64,000 nucleotides of DNA, taken from positions 1-64,000 of the IMG/VR virus record IMGVR_UViG_3300027542_000008; one strand, given 5' to 3'. Under the pieces are notes generated by a model. It was not told the DNA's origin. It did not search any database and saw only the letters and a program-made list of their open reading frames with translations. The DNA is from an uncultured virus (IMG/VR IMGVR_UViG_3300027542_000008) (lineage: Duplodnaviria; Heunggongvirae; Uroviricota; Caudoviricetes). A program made the translations under genes and the position numbers. Shown one piece after another: positions 3,104 to 20,947 of the stretch; within the stretch, counting starts at the first letter, position 1, and each line of letters opens with the position of its first letter.

Positions 3104-3432
3104 AATCCATACTTCCTTTTGAATTCGGCAAACACCTCTTCCGCGGGAATAAAATTTCCGGCTCTCGCCTGCTCCAACCCTTTATTAATTTCCATCTGCA
3201 TTTCGAGACTCAAAGCCACCGAAGCAACCGTCCTTAAACTTTCCGACAAGACGAGACAAATTCGCTTCAATCCTTCCGGAGAGAGCGTGGACATAAACGC
3301 TTCTTGTTCTGTTTTAGTCAGGTCCGAGAAGCATCTATTTTGCCATTTTTCGTCACGACAAACTCGATAATAAATTCCGTCTAATTCAAGCACTACCGGA
3401 TACTTTTTTGCTTCTTCTTGTTTTTCAACCAT
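3100..3432 (-). CDS. Hypothetical protein with antitoxin-like C-terminus
   Basis: Probable start MVEKQ; tail EINKGLEQARAGNFIPAEEVFAEF resembles antitoxin C-termini. Confidence 0.55.
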   Translation of the reverse strand: MVEKQEEAKKYPVVLELDGIYYRVCRDEKWQNRCFSDLTKTEQEAFMSTLSPEGLKRICLVLSESLRTVASVALSLEMQMEINKGLEQARAGNFIPAEEVFAEFKRKYGL

Positions 3433-4063
3433 CACCAAATACCTCTTCAAAAAATGATGACCAGTCACACAAAGACAAATCGTCAAATCTTGCCCTTGCA
3501 ACCTGCTCGTTTTCAAAGCTCGACTCGATTAAGGCGAGAGTGTTTTTGAGCGATTTAGCCTCTAACTTTAACACCCCCGGATGCCCCCAAATCATATCGC
3601 CAAGCGGGTGCCACCGTTCGTCTGGATTTTGCGTACCACGATATTCCGCGTTCTCAATTTTAACGCGGTACGCAATGTAAAACATTTTATTCCTTTTCAG
3701 CAAATAGGCTGTCCCGGAAGCACGCGAAAAACGAACCCGATAATAAAAGCCATACGAGTTCTCGTAAAGATAATTCACGTCTTCCAAATCAAACGATTTC
3801 TCGTCCAGAACCTGAACCGAAATTGCGAACCGAGTTTTAATGTAGCCCGCATAATGAGTTATTCTTCTTTCCCCCGCTTCAAAATGCTCAAAGGTATTTT
3901 TTAATTCGTCCATTTTGCCGGCGGGAATATTTTCAAGCATCTTCTTGAAATCTTCAACCGAGCCGAAGAACAGTTTTGTAAACGAAGTGCAGCTTGGCGC
4001 AGAATAATCGTCAAGCTCAAAAGAATACCAGGGGACCTTCTTCCCTTTCCACATAGCCACCAC
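3425..4063 (-). CDS. Hypothetical protein
   Basis: 212-aa ORF abutting upstream stop. Confidence 0.7.
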   Translation of the reverse strand: MVAMWKGKKVPWYSFELDDYSAPSCTSFTKLFFGSVEDFKKMLENIPAGKMDELKNTFEHFEAGERRITHYAGYIKTRFAISVQVLDEKSFDLEDVNYLYENSYGFYYRVRFSRASGTAYLLKRNKMFYIAYRVKIENAEYRGTQNPDERWHPLGDMIWGHPGVLKLEAKSLKNTLALIESSFENEQVARARFDDLSLCDWSSFFEEVFGDG

Positions 4064-5565: not shown

Positions 5566-6189
5566 ATGCCCAACGAAATAGACATTATAAATAAGTTTCA
5601 GGAAATAGCAAACGCGCCCCAGCAGCTTTCAATTTTCGGCACCAACTCCGAACACGCACAGAAGGTTGCTGACCATAAAAATTGGTTCCACAGTATTCGC
5701 CACGAATTCCCGAACCCCGCAACGCCATTCAAGGTTGGCGTTTATATTAGGTATTTTAATCAAACCCGGTACGAGGATTACCTCGCATTTCATAAGCAAC
5801 AGTTCAAAGACACAATCAACCTCTGCCCGAATTGGACGCTCATTGATTTCTATATTGACGAAGGCGCAACCGCCCCCAACATGGAATCCGCTTCCGAATG
5901 GAGTCGTTTATTAAACGATGCAATGGAAGGCAAGATCGATTTAATTATAACCCAGAAGGTCTCGAACGTTTCTAAGAAAATGCACGAGGTTACATTATGC
6001 GCCAGACTGCTTGCAGCGCACACACCTCCTATCGGGATTTATTTTATTTCGGAGGATATTTTCACCCTGGCTTCTTATTACCAGAATGACCTGAAAGACA
6101 CCTTCTTCCTTCCCTCACCGGATTGGAAAGTTCTGCCCGAAGATACTACCCCAGAAAATATAACCGAAAAAGGAACTTCCGATGATTGA
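5566..6189 (+). CDS. Resolvase-domain protein lacking the catalytic serine
   Basis: VGVYIRYF (no RVS), YIDEG and IDLIITQKVS motifs. Confidence 0.8.
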   Translation: MPNEIDIINKFQEIANAPQQLSIFGTNSEHAQKVADHKNWFHSIRHEFPNPATPFKVGVYIRYFNQTRYEDYLAFHKQQFKDTINLCPNWTLIDFYIDEGATAPNMESASEWSRLLNDAMEGKIDLIITQKVSNVSKKMHEVTLCARLLAAHTPPIGIYFISEDIFTLASYYQNDLKDTFFLPSPDWKVLPEDTTPENITEKGTSDD

Positions 6190-8092
6190 TGAAGAACGCC
6201 GCGTTTCCAAGGAACGCGAGAAAGCCAAAACGCGAAAGCGTATGCGCTTTGAAATTGATGAAGAGAACTACGAATTCACACCCGCGCGGAAAAGAGTCGA
6301 CTATTATGACAACGATACGCCTATGCGGGTGGTTATTTATGTCCGCGTTTCGACAGACGATGTCCGGCAGACCACTTCCTTCGAGCTTCAAAGACAATAC
6401 TATGAAGAATTCGTACAGAAGCACCCCCACTGGACTCTTATCAAAATTTACGCAGACGAAGGCATAAGCGGAACCTCCCGCCTACACCGCGATAATTTCA
6501 ACCAGATGATTGCCGACTGCAAAGCCGGCGAAGCTGACCTTATCATTACAAAAAGCGTTTCGCGTTTTGCCAGAAACGTGGTTGACTGCATCGGACTTAC
6601 GCGCGACCTTGCTGAATTGAAACCCCCTGTCGGAGTTTTCTTTGAATCGGAATGCATCTTCTCTTTGAATGACGATTCGCAAATGGCGCTGTCCTTCCAA
6701 GCAACTATGGCAGAGGAAGAATCACACACCCGCAGCCGCAGTATGGAAACCTCTCTGCGTATGCGCTTGGACCATGGCATTCCCCTTACTCCGAAGCTGC
6801 TCGGTTATACGCACGATGAAGATGGGAATTTAATCATCAATCCAGAAGAAGCACCCACCGTAAAGCTCACATTTTATATGTATCTTTATGGTTACTCAAC
6901 GCAGCAGATAGCGGACACTTTGAACGCGCTCGGCAGAAAGTCATATCTCGGAAACACAAACAAGTGGACTTCAAGCGGTGTAGTTCAAATCCTACGCAAC
7001 GAGCGACACTGCGGCGATGTTCTTACCCGAAAAACATTCACGCCAAATTACCGCGATCATAAGTCTGTAAAAAATCGCGGAGACCGTCCCCAAAGCAGAT
7101 ACCACAAGCACCATGAAGCCATTGTATCAAGAGATGATTTCATTGCGGTTCAGCGCATGCTGGATAATGCCAAATACAGGAATAAATCCTTCCTTCCGGA
7201 ACTTCGCGTAATTGACAGCGGCATATTAAAGGGTTTTGTTGTTATCAACCCCCGCTGGGCAGGCTTCAAGGAAATAGACTATTTCGAAGCTGCGAACAGC
7301 GTTTACACCACTCCGGAAAATGAGCAACCCGCAGAACCCCAAGTCCCGCAGGAAATAAAGATACCTGTTGAAGCCGGAGACTTTGACATGCGCGGGTTTG
7401 AAATAACACGCACTGAATTCTTCGATAGTGTCCGCCGCCCCTCTATTACCTTTGCAGAGAAAAAGCTCAAGTTAAGCACCGAGTGCATCCGGAAGCTGGG
7501 CGAAAGAAATTACATCGAACTATTGATTAATCCGATAGAAAAGAAATTCGCCATTCGCACAACTGACAAATCAAACCGTCAGGCTGTCATCTGCTCGAAG
7601 ATATCAGAGAAGGTATACTACTCTCGCCCGATATCAACCGCCGCTTTCAACGACACCCTCTTCTCGCTTTTCGGATGGAACGCCGATTGCCGTTACCGCA
7701 TCATCGGTTCACTATATGAAAAGGATAATGAAATCGCGTACATCTTTGATACCACCAATTCGGAAGCGTTCTTCAAGTCCTATGTTTTAACAAGCCAGGA
7801 AGCAACCGAAGCTGGCGGCAAAGGTACAGTCCAACCTTATACCCCCTCGCGCAACCGCATCCGTGCAATACCGCAAGCGTGGACCGATAGTTTCGGTAAG
7901 CCGTACTATTTACACGAGCAGACTCTCTCCGCGCTTGCAAATCAAAGCGAGTCGGATTGGAAAATACGAATGGAAGGTCAATTATTTGAAACCGGAAAGC
8001 AAATCCGAGTGACAGGCTTTGAGGAATTGCAAACGTACATAAATCAAGAATTAACTGGCATAACGCCACAGGAGGTAATACCTAATGATTGA
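6182..8092 (+). CDS. Large serine recombinase with extra C-terminal domain
   Basis: YVRVST, YADEGISG, KSVSRFARN, recombinase domain LRNERHCGD/HEAIVS. Confidence 0.92.
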   Translation: MIDEERRVSKEREKAKTRKRMRFEIDEENYEFTPARKRVDYYDNDTPMRVVIYVRVSTDDVRQTTSFELQRQYYEEFVQKHPHWTLIKIYADEGISGTSRLHRDNFNQMIADCKAGEADLIITKSVSRFARNVVDCIGLTRDLAELKPPVGVFFESECIFSLNDDSQMALSFQATMAEEESHTRSRSMETSLRMRLDHGIPLTPKLLGYTHDEDGNLIINPEEAPTVKLTFYMYLYGYSTQQIADTLNALGRKSYLGNTNKWTSSGVVQILRNERHCGDVLTRKTFTPNYRDHKSVKNRGDRPQSRYHKHHEAIVSRDDFIAVQRMLDNAKYRNKSFLPELRVIDSGILKGFVVINPRWAGFKEIDYFEAANSVYTTPENEQPAEPQVPQEIKIPVEAGDFDMRGFEITRTEFFDSVRRPSITFAEKKLKLSTECIRKLGERNYIELLINPIEKKFAIRTTDKSNRQAVICSKISEKVYYSRPISTAAFNDTLFSLFGWNADCRYRIIGSLYEKDNEIAYIFDTTNSEAFFKSYVLTSQEATEAGGKGTVQPYTPSRNRIRAIPQAWTDSFGKPYYLHEQTLSALANQSESDWKIRMEGQLFETGKQIRVTGFEELQTYINQELTGITPQEVIPND

Positions 8093-11304: not shown

Positions 11305-13071
11305 TTATGCTTCTTCAGTATTGCTGTCCGGGTTTTCTTCCGGAAGCGTAACGCCGAATATCGATGCGAGTTCTTTTTTAATCAGCTTCCTTCTTTCATT
11401 AAAGAACACATCAAAATCTTTCAGTTCAAGTGAAACGCCCGCGGGACGATACAAAAAGTTATACCCTGCGTTCACCCATTCATAAAGCGGTGTTTTATTC
11501 TTTGACTCGTTTTCTGTACCTTCCAAAAATTGAAGGTTCGGAAGGAGATTACGCTTCTTCTGCCACTCCTTCACTTTTTCTTCGGTCAGCCCCAGTGCAA
11601 TTATATTTTTATCATCAAAAGATACGTGTGGGTGACAATGGTCCTGATGGAACGCAACCTGGCTCAACTTGTAATTCGGGTAAAGCAGCGCCAAAAGCAA
11701 ATATGTGCTTTGCCCTTTTTCGTAGGTATTCAGCCAATGGTCGATGTCCTTTTCAGAAACCGTAAATGTTCTGCCACCGGTGAGCGTGGTTTCCGCGAAA
11801 AGTGATAACCCGAAAACCGCCTTCTTGCAATCAAGCGCTTTCAGCACGTTGCGCGTTTTATTCAAAGCATCGTTACTTGCAACACCGAAGAGGCGCTGAG
11901 CCATAGCAACCGACAGGAATTTACGCACTTCCTTTTTCGCTTCTTTATCTTTTATCTTGCCGCCCTTGTATAAGAAATAAACGATGGGCATCGTTGCGTT
12001 ATACGAAGTCAAGGTTTCGTTGGAAAGACCAATGTCTGCCAGGACAGTTGACATGGTATCTGCGGCGGCGTATATCGCATCCCAATTATCACGAATCGAT
12101 AAAACCGTCTTTTGATTTAAAGAGTTTATTTTCAGGTTTGTATTAGCATCAACCAGAACCAGGCAAAGTCGCATCAAGTAATCTCTGGTGAAATTGAACT
12201 TGTCCCCTTTGGAATTCATCGTGGCGAGAAGGTTTTCAATATTCTCTTTGCCGGTCTTCCACCCGTCTATCAAGGTCGAAAAAAGTAAGTCAGATTTTGA
12301 GAGCTTTCTGCCGGTGGAGTTTACGCGCACAAAGATGTCCAGAGCTTCATCGTATGTATTTTCGGAAATACAATAGTAATGAATCAACCCATTCCCGGAA
12401 GCGTTGTGCAGACGCTCAAAGAGCATTGACAAGTCATCGATTACCTTTTCATCGGTTGTCAGATTATTCAAAGCAAGCACAAACCGCTGCAATTTATCGA
12501 ATGCGAGTAAATTTTTTATTTTGTAATAATGTCCCGCTTCCGCATCCTCCTTTGTTAAAAAAACAAAGCGCTTCCTGGGGTTCTCATCATCCTCTTCTTC
12601 ATTGGATGCCGCGTAGAAATCAAGGTTATAATAAAGCTCTTTTGTCAACCACGACTTTGGATTATCCCAAGCGTGTCCCCTGCCGCCCTTGTAATATGTA
12701 TACGAACCATAAAGTGCAATGTTCAGTGAGGTGATACGCTGCTGTCCATCAAGCACGATGTAATAATCAATTTCGTTGCTAAACACCTCCGGCGCTTTTT
12801 CATTCTTCGTTTTCCAGCGCTCGTACTCACGCAGAAAATAATACAGGTTCGGTTTTTCTGCGTTTATGGTTGCGCGGTTGGTTTTCCAGAAAATACAAGA
12901 GCCAATCGGGTACTCGTCCACTATTGATTCAAACAGCCTTTCGATTTCCTGATAGTCCCATACATATTCCCTCTGGATATCCGGCAGCAATAAGGTATGG
13001 TTCTCGGCAAAGCGCAGCGCATCAAGGGCGCTCATATCTTCGTATTTATTGTTAGTGGGCATTGAGTTCAC
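11305..13071 (-). CDS. GmrSD-like type IV restriction nuclease (DUF262 + DUF1524/HNH)
   Basis: LPDIQREYVW, VLDGQQRITSL, IFVRVNSTG; C-terminal DHCHP...NLQFL...NESKN. Confidence 0.85.
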   Translation of the reverse strand: MNSMPTNNKYEDMSALDALRFAENHTLLLPDIQREYVWDYQEIERLFESIVDEYPIGSCIFWKTNRATINAEKPNLYYFLREYERWKTKNEKAPEVFSNEIDYYIVLDGQQRITSLNIALYGSYTYYKGGRGHAWDNPKSWLTKELYYNLDFYAASNEEEDDENPRKRFVFLTKEDAEAGHYYKIKNLLAFDKLQRFVLALNNLTTDEKVIDDLSMLFERLHNASGNGLIHYYCISENTYDEALDIFVRVNSTGRKLSKSDLLFSTLIDGWKTGKENIENLLATMNSKGDKFNFTRDYLMRLCLVLVDANTNLKINSLNQKTVLSIRDNWDAIYAAADTMSTVLADIGLSNETLTSYNATMPIVYFLYKGGKIKDKEAKKEVRKFLSVAMAQRLFGVASNDALNKTRNVLKALDCKKAVFGLSLFAETTLTGGRTFTVSEKDIDHWLNTYEKGQSTYLLLALLYPNYKLSQVAFHQDHCHPHVSFDDKNIIALGLTEEKVKEWQKKRNLLPNLQFLEGTENESKNKTPLYEWVNAGYNFLYRPAGVSLELKDFDVFFNERRKLIKKELASIFGVTLPEENPDSNTEEA

Positions 13072-13664: not shown

Positions 13665-15074
13665 CTATTTATAGACCGAGAGTGTTTTCGTAATGTCCGA
13701 AGTCAGGTTCTTCCCGCTGCGGGTTTTATCGCTCGTGGTTTTCGCCAAGCTGAACCAGTATTTGCTTCCCTTATAAACCAGCTTGTAGTGCGTGTTCTCG
13801 CTTGTGATTTCAAAGCCCACCCTTTTCAGCTCTGCCAGCTCTTTCGCGGAAAGGTCTTCACCATCAGCGAATATAGACTTAACCACTTCGAACAGTTCCT
13901 TGCCTTTTCCGATTATATGGTTATGCGCCAAAAGGTCGGTGAGCAGTTCTTTCTGCCGAGTATCCTTTGTGCCGCAGTTCGACAGCGCTTTCTGTAAAAT
14001 GGAAACCACCAAATCGTGCTGTTCGCCTTCGAAGAACTCCGGAATGCTTGAAGCCTCTAATACCGTTTGAACGGCATCGTTTTTCGTAAGCGCTCTGTTC
14101 AGGCTTTCGTTCTTTGCAGTCAACTGCATGTTCTCTTGCACCAGCGCTGCGATTCTTTCCTCTGCCCTTTTCAGCTTTTCGTCCAGCGTTTCGTTTGCAT
14201 CGAACGCTTCTTCTGCCAGAGCAGCATTTTCTTTCGCTTCCTTATGAACCAGCTCAGCGTGAAGTGCTTCCCAAGTCGGTGCTTCGGCATCAACCGCTGC
14301 GGTTACAAACCTTTGCACTTCATTTGCTATCTGCTTATCAAGCGTTGCGCCCAGGAACGCATCCTTTTTCCGGAACTGACGCGGCTTCCCACCTTTGCAG
14401 TAAATTGTAACCGCGCCATTGAACGGCACTGCACATTTCGCCTTATCCTTCAGAAGTCTTGTGTATTCGTTATCGCACACCACAATGTACGCAAGTCCTG
14501 CCAACTTCCTCGAAAGCGCAAAATCATCAATCTCGATTGCCTGGCTTCCAAAATATGTAGTCGCAAGAATTAACGGCAATTCCTCAGTATATTCTTCCTG
14601 AATAGCAGCCGCTATCCAATCGAGCAGGTCATTGGTTGCTTCAACGGTCCTGGAAGTAATAGGAACCTTCGGTTGCTTTACATACCCGCTGTTTACAAAA
14701 GTGCGAATAACCTCTGTGCGCATTTCAGGTGCTTCGTCAAATCTGGTCGCATCGCGGGAGCAATCAATGTGGAAGAACACCTCCTTCTCACTGCCGGCAC
14801 TTTTAAGAATAACTTCGTTCGTCCAGGTCTGCTGATGGAATTCCTGTTCCAACTTGAACAGGGTGAACGTTGAATCTTCCTTTTCGATTTGGAAAGTATC
14901 CGCAATACAATATTCCGCTTCCAGATGCACACCAACTTTCTCTTCGCAGGCTTCGAGCTGTTCAGCCACCGCCTTGCAAGGACCGGCATTTTTCATCCAC
15001 TGATTTATGGTTCCGAAAAACTCCGCTTCCGTAAACGCATCAACCATTTTCAGCTTTGTTGATACAACTCTCAT
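13665..15074 (-). CDS. Uncharacterised protein: N-terminal domains, coiled coil, HicA-like C-terminus
   Basis: Coiled coil LDEKLKRAEERIAAL; ELKRVGFEITSENTHYKL...TSD...KN. Confidence 0.7.
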   Translation of the reverse strand: MRVVSTKLKMVDAFTEAEFFGTINQWMKNAGPCKAVAEQLEACEEKVGVHLEAEYCIADTFQIEKEDSTFTLFKLEQEFHQQTWTNEVILKSAGSEKEVFFHIDCSRDATRFDEAPEMRTEVIRTFVNSGYVKQPKVPITSRTVEATNDLLDWIAAAIQEEYTEELPLILATTYFGSQAIEIDDFALSRKLAGLAYIVVCDNEYTRLLKDKAKCAVPFNGAVTIYCKGGKPRQFRKKDAFLGATLDKQIANEVQRFVTAAVDAEAPTWEALHAELVHKEAKENAALAEEAFDANETLDEKLKRAEERIAALVQENMQLTAKNESLNRALTKNDAVQTVLEASSIPEFFEGEQHDLVVSILQKALSNCGTKDTRQKELLTDLLAHNHIIGKGKELFEVVKSIFADGEDLSAKELAELKRVGFEITSENTHYKLVYKGSKYWFSLAKTTSDKTRSGKNLTSDITKTLSVYK

Positions 15075-16141
15075 CTGTCATCCTCCTCATTTGTATGGTT
15101 TAGAATCGAGAGAAGCATTTCATAAGCTGCCAGCCGTTTCGCTTCCTTCTTCGAACTTGCCTCGTAAAAATATGCGTCCTCATATTCGGCGATGCTGCAT
15201 TCGCAGGTCCAGACCGGGTTCCCGTTTTCATCGTGGTCCTCTTCGAACTCATAAACCGGCGCAGAGAAGTATCCCTTCTGGGACAGCTCGTGAAGTTGGC
15301 TCACTGCTCTTTCGCGCGAAGGTTCACCAATCTCATCCTGCATTGTGCGCAGAAGACCGTTTTCATCCAAATAATCATACGCAAGCTCCGCCGCCGCCAT
15401 TCTTGCCAGGCTCTTTGAATACCCGAAACCAACAAACGGTTCACCATCATCAATGCGCAATTCACAAACAATATCACCTTCACCCGCTTCCATTCTTTCA
15501 CGCCGGTTTACAAAGGTGTAACACCGAAGCATGCGGTTTAAGTCGTAAGTCTGCTTGTCCGTAAACTTGTAATCGGGTAATTCCCCGATGCGCTTCTGCT
15601 GCCAACGCTGGATGATGGAAACATAGTCCTGGTCCTCATCGAACCCTTCATCCAAATAGCAATCAACGTGCAGCATCATTTCCACCGCGTCCTGCATTGC
15701 AGCCATATCCCAACCGCTGTCAAGGGCAACAGCGCCGAGAATTGCTTCAAATAAATCCTCTTTCACATGGGTTTCGTTCTGGACATTATTCTTTTTGTCC
15801 CCTTTCCCCATAATTAAGTAATCCGCGAATCCAAGCTCGTCTATGCGCTCAGCCAGCATCTTACTTTCCACCAGATGCTTCTTAAACTCAGTGAGCTTGC
15901 CTTCTGTGTATTCGCACTCATACTCGTTGCGTTCGTTAATTTCACCGTAATACTCAGTCAGAACCTTGACGATGATCAGGTCCAGAACCTTATCGCCAAT
16001 GAACTCCAACACTTCATTGTTATCGCCATCGTGCGTTTCTTCCGTATAGCTTTTCCGGGTGAACGCTTGCTGCAATAACAACCTGTTCTCGAACTCGTAA
16101 CCGATTTGCTGTTCAATCTCGGTGTACTGTTCATCCTTCAT
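15071..16141 (-). CDS. rnc: Ribonuclease III with two dsRBD-like domains (accessory copy)
   Basis: NEVLEFIGD and EDLFEAILGA catalytic motifs; GYSKSLARMAAA and SSKKEAKRLAA dsRBD helices. Confidence 0.9.
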   Translation of the reverse strand: MKDEQYTEIEQQIGYEFENRLLLQQAFTRKSYTEETHDGDNNEVLEFIGDKVLDLIIVKVLTEYYGEINERNEYECEYTEGKLTEFKKHLVESKMLAERIDELGFADYLIMGKGDKKNNVQNETHVKEDLFEAILGAVALDSGWDMAAMQDAVEMMLHVDCYLDEGFDEDQDYVSIIQRWQQKRIGELPDYKFTDKQTYDLNRMLRCYTFVNRRERMEAGEGDIVCELRIDDGEPFVGFGYSKSLARMAAAELAYDYLDENGLLRTMQDEIGEPSRERAVSQLHELSQKGYFSAPVYEFEEDHDENGNPVWTCECSIAEYEDAYFYEASSKKEAKRLAAYEMLLSILNHTNEEDDR

Positions 16142-16346
16142 AAAAAAATACCTCCGTGTTTATTTCACAGAGGGCATAAAATGAGCCTGACGAATATAGA
16201 CTACGCCCTTGTAGCCCCGTCAGGCATCAACTCAAAAAATGGTGTTATATAAATCATTCGTCCTTGTTCCCTGTCACTTGCATAACAGGTCGCAAATCCA
16301 AGATGCTTTACATCCGACTATTTTTTTTGCAATGCCCTTCTCTGTG
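16142..16346 (-). ncRNA. Structured 5' leader of the RNase III operon (putative switch)
   Basis: Stem gcctgacg/cgtcaggc; 5' cacagagaagggcat pairs with atgccctctgtg; competing RBS hairpin ctctgtg/cacggag. Confidence 0.55.
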
Positions 16347-16351
16347 CTTTT

Positions 16352-16380
16352 ATTATATCAAACAGGCAGCCCGCTGTCAA
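16352..16380 (-). promoter_or_regulatory. Consensus sigma-A promoter
   Basis: TTGACA-17bp-TATAAT with TG extension. Confidence 0.85.
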
Positions 16381-16418
16381 TGGGTAGAATTCAAAAACAG
16401 CGGGAAACCAGCTCAATT

Positions 16419-17081
16419 TTAATTGCTCGTTCCGGAAACAGATGTTACCTTGCCATCCTGACATTGAACGATATAAGTGGTTTTTCCATTTTCACTGAAA
16501 TAATAGGTATAAGTTACCCAATGCCTATGCTGGTTATCACCTTCATGTTTTACTCTTGATGCATATTCGCCAAGTCCTGTAAAACTGATAAGTTCTTCTG
16601 ACATTCCCACATACGGAAGGTCTGGGTGCGGAACGGTTTCTGTAACGTATTTGAACTTATAATCACCTTTCTTTTCAAGCATGTAGCTGTTCAACGATGA
16701 AATGCTATAAGTGCCACCTTCATAAAACACATATTCCATAATGGATATTCTGCCCTCTTTGAAGCAGTCCATATCATAATTTGAATTCTTTAAAACCGAT
16801 AATGCTCCCCAAATAGACTCATAGTCTCCGGTTTCCTCCGTTTCCAGATAAATGGTTAAACTATATATTTTGTATTCTTTTTCGTTTGATGTCAGCGTGT
16901 TCAGGAATTCAGTTCTAATTTCGGTGCAGGAATAACCTTTATCACTCAATAGTGCATCTGCCTGGTTCCGCGCATTTGAAAGTAATTTTTCATCACTCGC
17001 AGAGCAGCCAACAACGAAGAATGAAAACACGCAAACCGCAGCGATACCTATAATGATTTTTGATAAAAGTTTTTTCCCCAT
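16419..17081 (-). CDS. Putative lipoprotein
   Basis: Signal peptide ending in a VVGC lipobox. Confidence 0.7.
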   Translation of the reverse strand: MGKKLLSKIIIGIAAVCVFSFFVVGCSASDEKLLSNARNQADALLSDKGYSCTEIRTEFLNTLTSNEKEYKIYSLTIYLETEETGDYESIWGALSVLKNSNYDMDCFKEGRISIMEYVFYEGGTYSISSLNSYMLEKKGDYKFKYVTETVPHPDLPYVGMSEELISFTGLGEYASRVKHEGDNQHRHWVTYTYYFSENGKTTYIVQCQDGKVTSVSGTSN

Positions 17082-17103: not shown

Positions 17104-17343
17104 TTATTTCTTGAATACGATGTTATAAAAATCCATCATCAGCTTTTCAATGACCTTAAATTCAAACGTAGGTACATATCCAACAGAGGACATCAAGCCC
17201 CCGTTTTTCTCGCCCAACTCGGTCAACTTCCAAGAGTTAGTACCGTTTTTAATAATCAAGCCCATTTCTTCCCACATTTGATAAACTAAATCTGTGCTGA
17301 ATCCAAATCTCTTAGCCACAAATCTTGCGGACATTCTATCCAA
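17104..17343 (-). CDS. Small winged-helix-like hypothetical protein
   Basis: WEEMGLI...WKLTELG motif. Confidence 0.55.
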   Translation of the reverse strand: MDRMSARFVAKRFGFSTDLVYQMWEEMGLIIKNGTNSWKLTELGEKNGGLMSSVGYVPTFEFKVIEKLMMDFYNIVFKK

Positions 17344-17414
17344 TTTTACTACCCCTGTTTTCGTTTGGTAGTGAAATTATATCATTTTTTAAATGATGTG
17401 TAAAGCGTTATGCC

Positions 17415-18989
17415 CTACACTTCAACCGTTAATCCGTTGCGGAAATGATAAATCAGCTTTCCGTCCCTTTGAACCACCACTTTATCAACCGTCATAAACC
17501 AGAGCTTATTATCGAATTCTTCCACCGCTTCATCGCGCTCGTGAAGCTCGAACATAAACGCGCCGATTGTTTCCGCTTTCTGTATGCGCTGTGTGCGCTG
17601 CTCCATCAATTCCTTAATTCGCGCATCAGCCTTTTTCGCTCTCTCATCCAGCGGGTTGTATTTCGCCCAGAACTCATCCTGGTCCTGAACCTTGCGCGAG
17701 TTATCTTCAATCATCTTCCGAAGCATTTCTCGAACCACCATAAACTCATCGGTTACGGTTTTCAATTCTTCGTCCAATGCTGCAGTGTCGGATAGCACCG
17801 CCTGCATTTCCCGGCAATCTTCCAGCAGGCTTTCCTTAATGCCTATCAAGCTGTTGATGGCTTTGAGGAACCCCTCTTTCAACTGCTCTTCCGTGAGGGT
17901 GGGCGTTGCGCATTTCTCGCCGTGATATTTGCCGTTACAGCGGTATATTATCTTTCGGTATTTACTATTCGAATGCCAGACCTTTTGCCCGTAGAACTCG
18001 CCACAATCGCCGCACACAACCTTTGAAGCAAAAGGTGCGCAACAGCTATATTTCCCTTTGTTTGCTTTCCGGCGCTGAATTTCACCTTGCACAATTTCAA
18101 ATTCCGCTGGCGTTATTATTGCCGGGTGGCTGTCTTCTACATAATACTGCGGGACCTTTCCATCGTTGACTATCATTTTCTTTTCGAGGAAGTCCACCGT
18201 ATATTTCTTCTGCAGAAGCGCCGAACCTCTGTATTTTTCATTTTGTAGAATACTTTCAATAGTGCTTGATTTCCAGGGAATAACCTTCCCTGTCGGGGTA
18301 GGGATTTGCTGTTCTGTCAGGTAATTCGCTATGCCGTAGCTCGTCTTGCCTTCCAGAAAAAGCGAGTAAATCAACCTGACCACCTCTGCCTGTTCCGGCA
18401 CGATTTCCGGCAGATCGTTTTCACCTTTTTTATAACCCAGAAACCTTTTATAAGGCATATTAACTTTTCCGTCCGCAAATCGCTTCCGCTGTCCCCACGT
18501 TACGTTATCACTTATGCTTCGGCTTTCGTCCTGCGCCAGCGAACTCATAATCGTTATGAGCAACTCGCCCTTGCTATCCAACGTGTAGATGTTTTCCTTT
18601 TCAAAGTAAACCTCTATGCCTTTCTCTTTCAGCTTTCGGACCGTAACCAGAGTGTCAACCGTGTTTCGTGCAAATCGGCTGATGGACTTAGTAACAATTA
18701 AATCAATCTTTCCGGCAAGCGCATCGTCTATCATTTCTTTGAACCCTTTCCTACGCTTGGTATTCGTACCGGTTATTGCCTTGTCCGTATAAACTTTTAC
18801 AAACTCCCAATCCGGTCGTCCCTGAATATACTTCGTATAGTAATCAACCTGCGCATCGTATGAGGTTTCCTGTTCTTCACTTGCGGTGGAAACTCGCGCA
18901 TATGCAGCCACCTTTTTCTTTTTGAACGTGTTATTATCAACGCCGGTATAAAAATCCTTTGTTGCTGGAATTACTGTAACCTTCGGCAT
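17415..18989 (-). CDS. Large serine recombinase
   Basis: AYARVST, KSISRFARN, Zn ribbon CGDCG, coiled coil. Confidence 0.93.
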   Translation of the reverse strand: MPKVTVIPATKDFYTGVDNNTFKKKKVAAYARVSTASEEQETSYDAQVDYYTKYIQGRPDWEFVKVYTDKAITGTNTKRRKGFKEMIDDALAGKIDLIVTKSISRFARNTVDTLVTVRKLKEKGIEVYFEKENIYTLDSKGELLITIMSSLAQDESRSISDNVTWGQRKRFADGKVNMPYKRFLGYKKGENDLPEIVPEQAEVVRLIYSLFLEGKTSYGIANYLTEQQIPTPTGKVIPWKSSTIESILQNEKYRGSALLQKKYTVDFLEKKMIVNDGKVPQYYVEDSHPAIITPAEFEIVQGEIQRRKANKGKYSCCAPFASKVVCGDCGEFYGQKVWHSNSKYRKIIYRCNGKYHGEKCATPTLTEEQLKEGFLKAINSLIGIKESLLEDCREMQAVLSDTAALDEELKTVTDEFMVVREMLRKMIEDNSRKVQDQDEFWAKYNPLDERAKKADARIKELMEQRTQRIQKAETIGAFMFELHERDEAVEEFDNKLWFMTVDKVVVQRDGKLIYHFRNGLTVEV

Positions 18990-20305
18990 TATTGCACCCT
19001 CCTTTTTAACTCTTCTTGTCTTTCCGCTTCCTTAATCTTCGCTTTCAATTTCATTTCCGGTGTCCAGCTTTCGGCGCGGGACCTGTCTTTCCAAACACGC
19101 TCAACCACCTCGCCGTTCTTCAAGTGAAACACCAGCCGGTTTCCTTCAAAGGCATCGATAAAATCAATGGCATCGTGGATGTTCTTGTAGTTTAACCCGG
19201 TGATGCCAAGCACCTCTTCGGTAACGCTCACCATCGTATCTTCGCGTATCTGTTTTGACTGCGGGCAGGATTGCTTCCCGTGAACCACAAATGTGTTACA
19301 GCGCCAAAGCCAGGAACTATAACCTTTGCACCGGCGGTAATTCACCCCGCAATATGGGCAGCGAATCAGGCTCGTAAATAGGTACATCATATACGGAGCT
19401 TTCTTCGGAAGATTCGCGTTTCGGCGTTCAATCTCAGCCTGCGCTTGCTGGTATGTTTCCATTGAAATAATCGGCTCGTGCGTTTCCTGACAATGATACT
19501 TTGGTTTCCTACCATCGTTCACTATCGATTTTTTTGTCATAAAATTTTCTCGGTAGGTTTTCTGTAAAATCAGGTTGCCGGTATAAGCGTAGTTGCGCAG
19601 GATATTATAAACCGATGTCCTTTGCCATTTTTCTGCACGCCTGGGTTTGATGCCATCTCGATTCAAGCCGCGCAGAATTGATTCCCTTCCTTTCCCGGCA
19701 AGGAACTCTGCGAAAATTCGCTTCACCACTTCCGCTTCCTCCGGAATAATCTGGAGCTGACAATCTACTGCTTTGTAACCGTAAATCTGCATCCCCCAGA
19801 CCTTGCCTTCTTCGAAGTTCCGCTTTACCCTCCAGAGCTGATTTTCGCTTGCTGACCTGCTCTCTTCCTGCGCATACGATGCGAGAATTGTCAGCATCAC
19901 TTCGCCTTCGGTTGAGAGCGTGAAAATGTTCTGCTCTTCGAAGTAAATCTCGATGCCCATATCCTTGAGTTCTCGAACCGCCTGCAGAAGCGTTACTGTG
20001 TTTCGCGCAAACCTGGTGATGGACTTTGTGATGATCAGGTCAATGTTTCCCTTGCGACATTCTGCCAGCATTTCCTGAAACTGCTCACGGGAGTCCTTCG
20101 TTCCGGTTTCAGCTTCGTCCGCATATACCCCGCAGAACTTCCAAGCTGCGCGGGACTGAATGAGGCGTTGGTAATAACTGACCTGCGCCGAAAGCGAATG
20201 CAGCATTTCATCCTTTCCACTTGAAACTCTGGCGTATGCGCATACCCTTTTTATTTGCGCTGCCTTCGGAAGCGTAGGTCTTACTAACTGTACCGTCCTT
20301 TCCAT
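18989..20305 (-). CDS. Large serine recombinase
   Basis: AYARVSS, KSITRFARN, CPYCG; start MERTV after RBS aggagg. Confidence 0.93.
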   Translation of the reverse strand: MERTVQLVRPTLPKAAQIKRVCAYARVSSGKDEMLHSLSAQVSYYQRLIQSRAAWKFCGVYADEAETGTKDSREQFQEMLAECRKGNIDLIITKSITRFARNTVTLLQAVRELKDMGIEIYFEEQNIFTLSTEGEVMLTILASYAQEESRSASENQLWRVKRNFEEGKVWGMQIYGYKAVDCQLQIIPEEAEVVKRIFAEFLAGKGRESILRGLNRDGIKPRRAEKWQRTSVYNILRNYAYTGNLILQKTYRENFMTKKSIVNDGRKPKYHCQETHEPIISMETYQQAQAEIERRNANLPKKAPYMMYLFTSLIRCPYCGVNYRRCKGYSSWLWRCNTFVVHGKQSCPQSKQIREDTMVSVTEEVLGITGLNYKNIHDAIDFIDAFEGNRLVFHLKNGEVVERVWKDRSRAESWTPEMKLKAKIKEAERQEELKRRVQ

Positions 20306-20315
20306 TTCACCCTCC

Positions 20316-20711
20316 TCAATCTGCCAAAAGCATATCAAACCGGAGAGCCGCTTCCGCATCAAGGGAATATAGGTTTTCAAGCTCGAAGAAAACGCCTACC
20401 CCGCATTTTTTCAAAATGCTCATTATCTTTTCGAACTTCCTCACATCGCGCGAAAACCTGGAAACCGACTTTGTAATAATCAAGTCAATTTTGCGCTTCT
20501 TGCAGTCTTTCAGCATTCGCTTCATATCCCTGTCTTTCAGCCGCAGGTCGGTATAAATCCCGGCGTTCGTCCAACCATCGACACCATTGATTAACCGGTT
20601 GTAGTATTCGGTTTGGATGTCCGGCAGAGCCGCAGGAACGGGCTTGCGGCGAACATACGCGCAAACCCTCAAAGGTCGTTGTTGCTTCAATTTTTCCAGC
20701 TTGTTTTCCAT
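20316..20711 (-). CDS. Resolvase-domain-only protein lacking catalytic serine
   Basis: VCAYVRRKP; IDLIITKSVSRFSR; start MENKL after RBS aggagg. Confidence 0.8.
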   Translation of the reverse strand: MENKLEKLKQQRPLRVCAYVRRKPVPAALPDIQTEYYNRLINGVDGWTNAGIYTDLRLKDRDMKRMLKDCKKRKIDLIITKSVSRFSRDVRKFEKIMSILKKCGVGVFFELENLYSLDAEAALRFDMLLAD

Positions 20712-20770
20712 AGAAAACCTCCTTGTTTTTTGGCATGCGTATATTACCTCTAAACCGAATTTATATCCAC

Positions 20771-20947
20771 TCATTTTCGGGCATAATTTCGGAAAATAGA
20801 GGTAATTTTGATACAATATTTTTCACACATTTTCTGGTCGATTTTATAATGCTCGGCTTCCGATATAATCCCTTGCGCAAGCATTGAATCTGCCATACTC
20901 ATGGCGAGTTTATAACCCGTTATCCTCTCCGCTTCTTCTTTCGTCAT
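20771..20947 (-). CDS. Small SHOCT-like protein of the recombinase cluster
   Basis: MLAQGIISEAEHYKID motif. Confidence 0.65.
   Translation of the reverse strand: MTKEEAERITGYKLAMSMADSMLAQGIISEAEHYKIDQKMCEKYCIKITSIFRNYARK

Follow-up and report, generated by a model that had tools for sequence, protein, structure and literature searches.

The window analysed here is a 64,000-nucleotide (nt) stretch of an uncultured virus of the class Caudoviricetes (IMG/VR record IMGVR_UViG_3300027542_000008, positions 1 to 64,000). On its minus strand, it encodes a ribonuclease III (RNase III)-like protein of 356 amino acids (aa) at 15071-16141. The gene is preceded by a leader of about 200 nt, which is the subject of this work and which an earlier note on this DNA had described as an RNase III leader with mutually exclusive pairings over the ribosome-binding site. 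All features below lie on the minus strand unless stated otherwise.

Leader, promoter and gene product in the window

A sigma-70-type promoter (16352-16380) lies directly ahead of the leader and matches the consensus at 12/12 positions. It consists of an exact -35 element, TTGACA (16380-16375), a 17-nt spacer, and the -10 element TATAAT (16357-16352), with a TG one base before it (TGnTATAAT). Promoter-like sites as a class are not enriched between 13000 and 17500 (9 found against a shuffle mean of 8.0), and the leader promoter is the sole 12/12 site among the nine. Transcription is predicted to start at about 16345, giving a leader of about 204 nt.

The 5′ end of the leader, cacagagaagggcat (16346-16332), can pair with atgccctctgtg (16177-16166), which starts 169 nt downstream. 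In this closing helix, termed P1, the terminal extension CACAGA (16346-16341) and the core GGGCAU (16337-16332) face UCUGUG and AUGCCC, and a 3-nt bulge (GAA) separates the two parts. P1 is present in the minimum-free-energy fold of 16346-16130 (-66.0 kcal/mol, z = -4.45), whose energy was matched by 0/200 shuffles. Two further elements are predicted within P1. P2 (16330-16230) is an interrupted hairpin of 101 nt with 36 bp in eight helical segments, and its tip, CCUGUUAU-GCAA-GUGACAGG (16289-16270), carries a GNRA loop at 16281-16278 and is near-invariant in relatives. P3 (16229-16182) is a hairpin of 18 bp built from GCCUGACG/CGUCAGGC and GGGCUAC/GUAGUCU; it contains an internal stem in which gcctgacg (16225-16218) pairs with cgtcaggc (16192-16185).

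The distal half of the P1 3′ arm is the switching strand, as it is common to P1 and to a second hairpin, CCUCUGUG-loop-CACGGAGG (16173-16151), called here the OFF hairpin. In this alternative pairing, ctctgtg joins cacggag (16158-16152), which overlaps the Shine-Dalgarno (SD) sequence GGAGG (16155-16151) held in the 3′ arm of the hairpin. A U7 tract (16148-16142) sits between the hairpin and the start codon AUG (16141-16139). The same hairpin was independently called terminator-like by a scan (8 pairs, including 5 G-C pairs, with a loop of 7 nt and the tail TATTTTTTTA), and its G+C-containing stem-loop, directly followed by a U-run, has the make-up of an intrinsic terminator. As judged from these features, the OFF hairpin appears to be both a sequestrator of the SD and an intrinsic-terminator-like element, the second role going beyond the earlier note. 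The promoter, the pairing of the 5′ end about 170 nt downstream, the alternative pairing over the ribosome-binding site and the internal stem had all been pointed out in that note, and all were recovered. Taken together, the window leader is modelled as a three-way junction of P1, P2 and P3, followed by a bistable platform.

Additional target sites in the form of the P2 tip motif were not detected elsewhere in the window: the exact match occurs only in the leader, and two one-mismatch matches are at chance level (3/100 shuffles reach three matches). Contigs from RNA libraries of four runs (two studies) cover the leader; such contigs carry no information on ends, strand or processing, and the parts they leave uncovered carry no meaning. 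One of them, 217 nt long, spans 16111-16327 without differences. Some cross the leader promoter, for which read-through or DNA are both possible.

The 356-aa protein matches PF14622, PF00636 and PF00035 in Pfam, which cover the RNase III domain and the double-stranded RNA-binding domain (dsRBD). In its AlphaFold model (AF2, pLDDT 86.8), the nuclease domain is accompanied by two dsRBD folds of the alpha-beta-beta-beta-alpha type, spanning about residues 173-260 and 279-350. The best fold matches in the PDB were the RNase III enzymes of Aquifex and E. coli, Dicer, Drosha, and Rnt1p. Across 20 diverse family members, the catalytic residues E43, E46, D50, D129 and E132 do not vary. With one RNase III domain, the acidic catalytic signature and a dsRBD, the protein has the make-up of a class 1 RNase III, and it resembles the architectures of Dcr1 and Rnt1p of budding yeast. 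It differs from these in having an extra middle dsRBD-like fold and in its score of 152.6 bits with the rnc equivalog model TIGR02191, below the cut-off of 166.25.

Housekeeping rnc operons have era downstream. Here, the next gene encodes a 469-aa protein without a Pfam family, and the module is prophage cargo. For these reasons and because of the TIGR02191 score, housekeeping rnc was rejected as the identity of the gene, which appears to be a mobile-element paralogue of RNase III. The earlier description as an RNase III leader therefore stands insofar as a structured leader precedes a gene of the RNase III family, but the gene is not rnc.

Protein searches returned many relatives of 330-390 aa, mostly unnamed and from gut metagenomes. 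A sub-clade on viral contigs (L102-L115) contains relatives of 276-297 aa without the middle dsRBD-like domain. PADLOC-DB 2.0 holds no model matching the protein, the isolated phage records of INPHARED contain no relative of it, and a scan of species genomes for close relatives found only a canonical RNase III, 27% identical (L002).

Conservation and competing folds of the leader

Searched with blastn, the window leader matched the stretch immediately ahead of the gene in relatives whose protein identity is as low as about 58%; nucleotide identity was about 70%. Homologous loci were fetched around protein relatives on metagenome and viral contigs, and 491 metagenome-contig stretches encode relatives of the RNase III-like gene. 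When 10 leaders were aligned with MAFFT, RNAalifold returned a consensus of 51 pairs, 21 of which show compensatory changes. Although this alignment was blind to structure, 94.7% of its pair cells are paired, against 41-47% in slid controls.

Two covariance models were built, R1 from the 10-leader alignment and R2 from 57 distinct matches. In 86 of the 97 loci with the gene, R1 found a match on the sense strand that ends where the gene starts; most of these matches are full-length, and a few are partial or cut by the contig end. R2 added 12 loci, including those of relatives of 276-278 aa, so that both models together cover 98/107. Among the nine misses, L040 and L045 have only 41 nt upstream, the leader of L065 is truncated, and L099 is matchless. 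The remaining five are L103, L104, L106, L108 and L116, and the three leaders inspected there are similar in length and diverged. In L065, at about 1200-1300, the promoter is followed by only the first ~30 nt of the motif, joined without a gap to about codon 10 of the RNase III-like gene; this may reflect either a deletion of the remaining leader and start codon or an assembly chimera.

Across the 57 distinct leaders, 91.3% of the pair cells are paired (42-48% when slid), 43 of the 51 pairs change on both sides, and 0/500 shuffles reach the observed values; these figures are strong support but yield no probability, because the alignment (A4) follows the model and is made up of related sequences. 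The RNA strand is fixed by abundant G-U pairs and by far weaker scores on the reverse strand. The covariation check proposed in the earlier note thus came out in favour of the structure. The 200-base leader is a truly conserved folded RNA, beyond chance, since it is homologous leaders that show conservation and covariation, rather than a fold of a single sequence.

The degree and kind of conservation differ along the leader. The P1 core (GGCAU/AUGCC) is nearly invariant, with 97.5% of its cells paired and 4/5 pairs changing on both sides. P2 is conserved in length across the family and shows covariation in helices 2-6, and its UAAA/UUUA and U-rich/A-rich pairs are conserved in sequence. At its tip, four pairs (UUAU/GUGA in the window) close a G(C/A)AA tetraloop. 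This tip motif and the UAAA/UUUA pairs are conserved at 90-97% or more, and many of the conserved bases of the leader lie within helices and at the hairpin tip. In the base of P3 (helix 7), 9/9 pairs change on both sides; the length of its tip varies by up to about 60 nt among relatives, and a U-rich linker joins P3 to the 3′ strand of P1. The OFF hairpin (helix 9) is paired in 97.8% of cells, and 3/4 of its pairs change on both sides. In one relative (L009), identity to the window is 97.5% for the leader but only 81% for the encoded protein; either the leader is more strongly constrained there than the gene, or recombination has exchanged it.

A promoter with at least 9/12 matches stands upstream in 55 of the 57 leaders, and the -10 element ends 12-16 nt ahead of the P1 core in 41 of them. 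From this placement, the transcript is predicted to begin only about 6-10 nt before the P1 core, and the 5′ strand that takes part in switching would therefore be the extreme end of the RNA.

Rfam 15 (4227 families) was also searched, as had been proposed earlier, and gave no match over the leader at E-values up to 10 for the window and up to 1 for seven homologous loci; this includes a model of the rnc leader if Rfam holds one. No description of such a motif came up in full-text searches of the literature or in the main texts of PMC5737381 and PMC11109978, two papers on motif discovery whose supplements might list a similar one, and the RNase III-like paralogue is nowhere described as a defence gene in these texts.

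The competition between P1 and the OFF hairpin was followed in silico in the same 57 leaders. When the 5′ end is truncated, the 3′ arm of P1 folds onto the SD region in 57/57, with at least 5 bp in 55. The sequestered fold which the earlier note had expected upon loss of the 5′ arm is thus predicted throughout. The hairpin alone is worth -10.5 kcal/mol. Nevertheless, the energy of the SD-free state minus that of the hairpin state has a median of only +1.7 kcal/mol and lies within ±3 kcal/mol in 38/55 leaders with predicted starts. The energy of the hairpin is compensated because its 5′ arm can pair with the 5′ end of the RNA: with the SD arm kept unpaired, the hairpin 5′ arm does so over 3-10 nt in 55/55. 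For the window itself, the two states were computed at -63.3 and -62.7 kcal/mol.

The exclusivity claimed for the two pairings needs to be narrowed. The OFF hairpin is compatible with the short P1 core, and the truly exclusive pairings are those of the 5′-terminal P1 extension and of the hairpin 5′ arm. The claim thus holds for the extension and fails for the core. Extensions from the same leader pair better with each other than cross-combinations do (-2.63 versus -1.36 kcal/mol, p = 3.6e-5, computed on non-independent sequences).

The platform that follows the junction varies. A run of at least five Ts occurs within 15 nt after the hairpin in 49/57 leaders. No run that long is found in the other eight, where the action would therefore be on translation only. 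In L020-L022, the hairpin and its U-run are followed, some 45 nt further on, by a second SD, and the hairpin there would therefore act as a terminator only. The diverged short-protein clade seems to follow the same switch logic with other sequences, according to the predicted folds. A 5′-terminal segment of the GUCCGA type pairs with bases immediately ahead of the SD, and the SD is free in 5/7 intact leaders and paired in 7/7 after removal of 14 nt. In the leaders of L102-L115, the topology is rearranged: the closing helix spans a P3-like hairpin and a U-run, and a second SD follows.

Mobile-element setting of the gene

The window, a viral record, carries genes for tail, tape-measure and holin proteins, serine recombinases and repressor-like proteins, with a cargo region between them. 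Three consecutive large serine-recombinase genes (17415-20816), the last of which is short and overlaps its neighbour, adjoin the cargo region, and a fourth is found on the plus strand at 6182-8092. Two large serine-recombinase genes also stand directly upstream of the RNase III-like gene in 16 other loci. Besides the RNase module, the cargo region holds a GmrSD-type HEC-05 gene two genes downstream of it (11305-13071; GmrSD_N, PADLOC HEC-05 at E 4.7e-148).

The 469-aa gene (13665-15074) overlaps the stop codon of the RNase gene (ATGA) and is probably co-transcribed with it, to judge from the arrangement; a terminator-like site follows at 13469-13445. No family could be assigned to it: there is no Pfam match, the ESM Atlas neighbours are only unnamed clusters, and the match to PADLOC HEC-07 is weak (E 5.9e-8). 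The gene occurs behind the RNase gene only in the closest clade (10 loci). A 73%-identical relative in L007 (3629-6410) follows a serine recombinase without any RNase III-like gene or leader, which shows that the two genes are separable. The operon with a downstream effector postulated earlier can accordingly be kept for the closest clade but not as a general feature.

The neighbours vary between loci, and mobile-element and conflict genes dominate among them. They include large serine recombinases, Mob_Pre, TnpV, integrase, TOTE primase-helicase-PLD and Panacea genes, as well as AbiEii-like ATPase, Fic, BrxA/BrxB (BREX) and Schlafen-like genes. The RNase III-like gene thus appears to travel as cargo, both on prophages and on further mobile elements of gut Clostridia. 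According to DNA and RNA-library contigs, the element is present in gut samples from mice and rats. Beside two related loci, tRNA genes are found (L016, 5597-5670; L061, 2585-2657), consistent with integration of the elements at tRNA genes.

Upstream of the leader promoter, the window encodes a 220-aa protein with a lipoprotein-type N-terminus and without a family match (16419-17081), which is kept only in the closest loci. Two open reading frames (ORFs) upstream of the leader promoter, an 11/12 promoter-like site (17376-17404) precedes a 79-aa ORF (17104-17343).

A search of plasmids found one gene, 33% identical, on pRUMAL01 of Ruminococcus albus 7 (L234). It encodes 506 aa with an N-terminal extension and is annotated as ribonuclease III domain-containing. 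Its leader was unmatched by both covariance models at E-values up to 0.1. At about 3300-3545 of that locus, a hairpin GCCUCCAUG.../...UAUGGGAGG lies over the SD and is followed by a U-run; a possible competitor of this hairpin is a CAUGGAG segment about 150 nt upstream. This strain is a cultured one.

Candidate modes of control

What is established is that the leader is conserved and structured, that its pairings compete, and that the competing states have near-equal predicted energies. The leader is best understood as a new cis-regulatory family which gates a mobile RNase III-like gene, with the gene's own product as the most likely effector of a negative autoregulation; this reading is given a probability of about one half. 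In such a scheme, the leader would be transcribed from its own strong predicted promoter, and the first transcribed bases would extend P1 by capturing the strand that otherwise forms the 5′ arm of the hairpin. The intact, P1-extended RNA would be the ON state. Once the 5′ arm is lost or displaced, the SD/terminator hairpin would form, and expression would be turned OFF by termination, by a block of translation, or by both. The putative effector, the product of the gene itself, would bind or cut the long double-stranded RNA (dsRNA) arms P2 and P3, and a cut or a tight grip would free the 5′ arm and shut off further synthesis. The outcome would be a negative feedback on a nuclease potentially harmful in excess. 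As a speculation, the GNRA tip might dock on conserved G-C pairs of P1, and the protein might compete with this docking.

The own product is favoured as effector for several reasons. The motif has been seen only before the RNase III-like family, whose product is a predicted dsRNA-binding nuclease with intact catalytic residues. P2 (36 bp) and P3 (18 bp) offer long dsRNA arms, and many conserved bases sit in helices and at the hairpin tip. A pattern scan of viral contigs that was blind to the gene gave five model-positive sites among 80 fetched of 116 matches, and 5/5 lie on contigs carrying an RNase III-like gene. Restriction of a motif to the gene of an RNA-binding protein, as expected of an autogenous leader, was thus found within the 98/107 loci and the 5/5 sites.

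Several points weigh against this reading. The loci were gathered via the gene, so that the exclusivity of the motif rests on a small unbiased sample, namely the five gene-blind sites. The putative effector was chosen by association and by a substrate-like shape; P2, with its interruptions, and P3 are compatible with an RNase III substrate, short of proof. The middle dsRBD was considered as a reader of the tip hairpin and rejected, because relatives without that domain keep the tip. Transcription starts are predictions in all leader analyses, and the covariation counts from the 57-leader alignment lean towards the structure to which it was fitted. In the minimum-energy folds of the full-length leaders, P1 is present in only 32/57 and the hairpin in the rest. 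Such a split would fit a bistable element. Outside the window's clade, the 5′ extension of P1 is weak (about -2 kcal/mol). Finally, the three-way junction, the GNRA loop, the conserved junction bases and the interchangeable platforms are also riboswitch-like.

By the analogy of this architecture, a riboswitch or a sensor of another trans-acting factor is a serious rival, even if an unlikely one. In that case, the three-way junction would bind, as an aptamer, a small molecule or an ion, perhaps a nucleotide linked to infection or stress, and this binding would stabilise P1 and permit read-through into the nuclease gene. The leader has the two hallmarks of such an element. Its aptamer-like structured core is conserved with covariation, GNRA loop and junction bases included, and P1 competes, in a mutually exclusive manner and at near-equal energy, with a terminator/SD-hairpin platform that is modular (terminator only, terminator plus SD, SD only). 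Riboswitches with P1/terminator control, such as those with a three-way-junction or a GNRA-docked aptamer, resemble it in their multi-helix core closed by P1, in the 3′ strand of P1 which is common to the terminator or SD hairpin, and in platforms that differ between relatives. No known class matches the window leader, which would therefore be an orphan. Riboswitch classes usually control several functionally linked genes. The leader, in contrast, was seen only before a single gene family, itself encoding an RNA-binding enzyme, and never before several functionally linked families among the 98/107 gene-anchored loci and the 5/5 gene-blind sites, a small sample from viral contigs for the gene-blind part. 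Furthermore, much of the sequence conservation falls in paired positions and outlines no compact pocket, and the variable neighbour genes suggest no candidate ligand. If it were a riboswitch, the leader would be an orphan class controlling a nuclease.

The order of promoter, structured RNA, terminator-like hairpin and endoribonuclease gene also recalls type III toxin-antitoxin systems such as ToxIN, which are likewise carried on mobile elements. In this case, U-run-ended transcripts of about 200 nt would accumulate and bind the enzyme as inhibitor, decoy or cofactor, so that the leader would also be a stand-alone RNA partner of the nuclease. The defence-island-like setting (serine recombinases, TOTE, Panacea, AbiEii-like, BREX, Fic) and the terminator that is separate from the second SD in L020-L022 and in the short-protein clade speak for it. 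In contrast to type III systems, however, the RNA has no tandem repeats (none within 16100-16450), and the nuclease is of the RNase III type, not of the ToxN/AbiQ type. The SD of the gene itself is part of the hairpin in most leaders, which indicates control in cis. PADLOC has no model for the protein, whose toxicity is only supposed. An RNA partner of this kind is accordingly held to be improbable.

An extension of negative autoregulation can also be envisaged, in which the leader and the RNase III-like enzyme form a self-contained dsRNA-sensing circuit of mobile elements. In a resting lysogen, the enzyme would keep itself low by cutting its decoy-like leader. A flood of phage dsRNA, or inhibition of RNase III, would draw the enzyme off, P1 would stay closed, and a burst of nuclease, in the window's clade also of the 469-aa partner, would follow. 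This circuit is a long shot. If true, it would give bacteria an equivalent of dsRNA-triggered innate immunity, with a Dicer-like architecture at its centre.

Least probable is the proposal of the earlier note that the housekeeping RNase III of the host cuts the leader and keeps the module off until a phage inhibits or saturates that enzyme and de-represses the gene and its downstream effector: any RNase III of class 1 could use the long dsRNA arms, the OFF fold is indeed predicted once the 5′ arm is lost, and a second gene is probably co-transcribed in the window's clade, but the present results do not distinguish the host enzyme from the element's own, a host sensor would leave the strict coupling of motif and paralogue unexplained, the 469-aa gene is absent from most loci (present in 10), and titration by a phage as the trigger is pure speculation.

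Autoregulation by an RNase III has a precedent. The leader of the E. coli rnc operon (rncO) is structured with long stems, and the enzyme limits its synthesis by acting on its own mRNA: it removes a stabilising stem-loop, and the transcript decays faster. The window leader resembles rncO as a structured, long-stemmed 5′ leader of an RNase III gene. It differs in its three-way junction, its switch between P1 and an SD hairpin and its terminator, none of which is known from rncO, and in its gene, a mobile-element paralogue with two dsRBDs instead of an rnc-era operon. With the autogenous leaders of ribosomal-protein genes, rne and pnp, it has in common a motif confined to the gene of the putative binder and a substrate-like structure; the RNA itself is unrelated to them, and the interaction is so far a deduction. 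By analogy, the function would resemble autogenous leaders and the form riboswitch platforms, while the leader appears to be a member of none of the families tested. It is a new RNA family that uses a switch logic already known and is linked to a mobile, uncharacterised paralogue of RNase III.

The leader adds a well-supported structured RNA family, with dozens of distinct sequences from about a hundred loci, which is absent from Rfam 15. The family is tied to an uncharacterised two-dsRBD paralogue of RNase III on prophages and integrative elements of gut Clostridia, beside defence genes. If the autoregulation proposed here is true, it would be a second and mechanistically different solution to the control of an RNase III, relying on a conformational switch rather than on message stability, and it would provide a specific RNA substrate for studying how the enzyme reads RNA.

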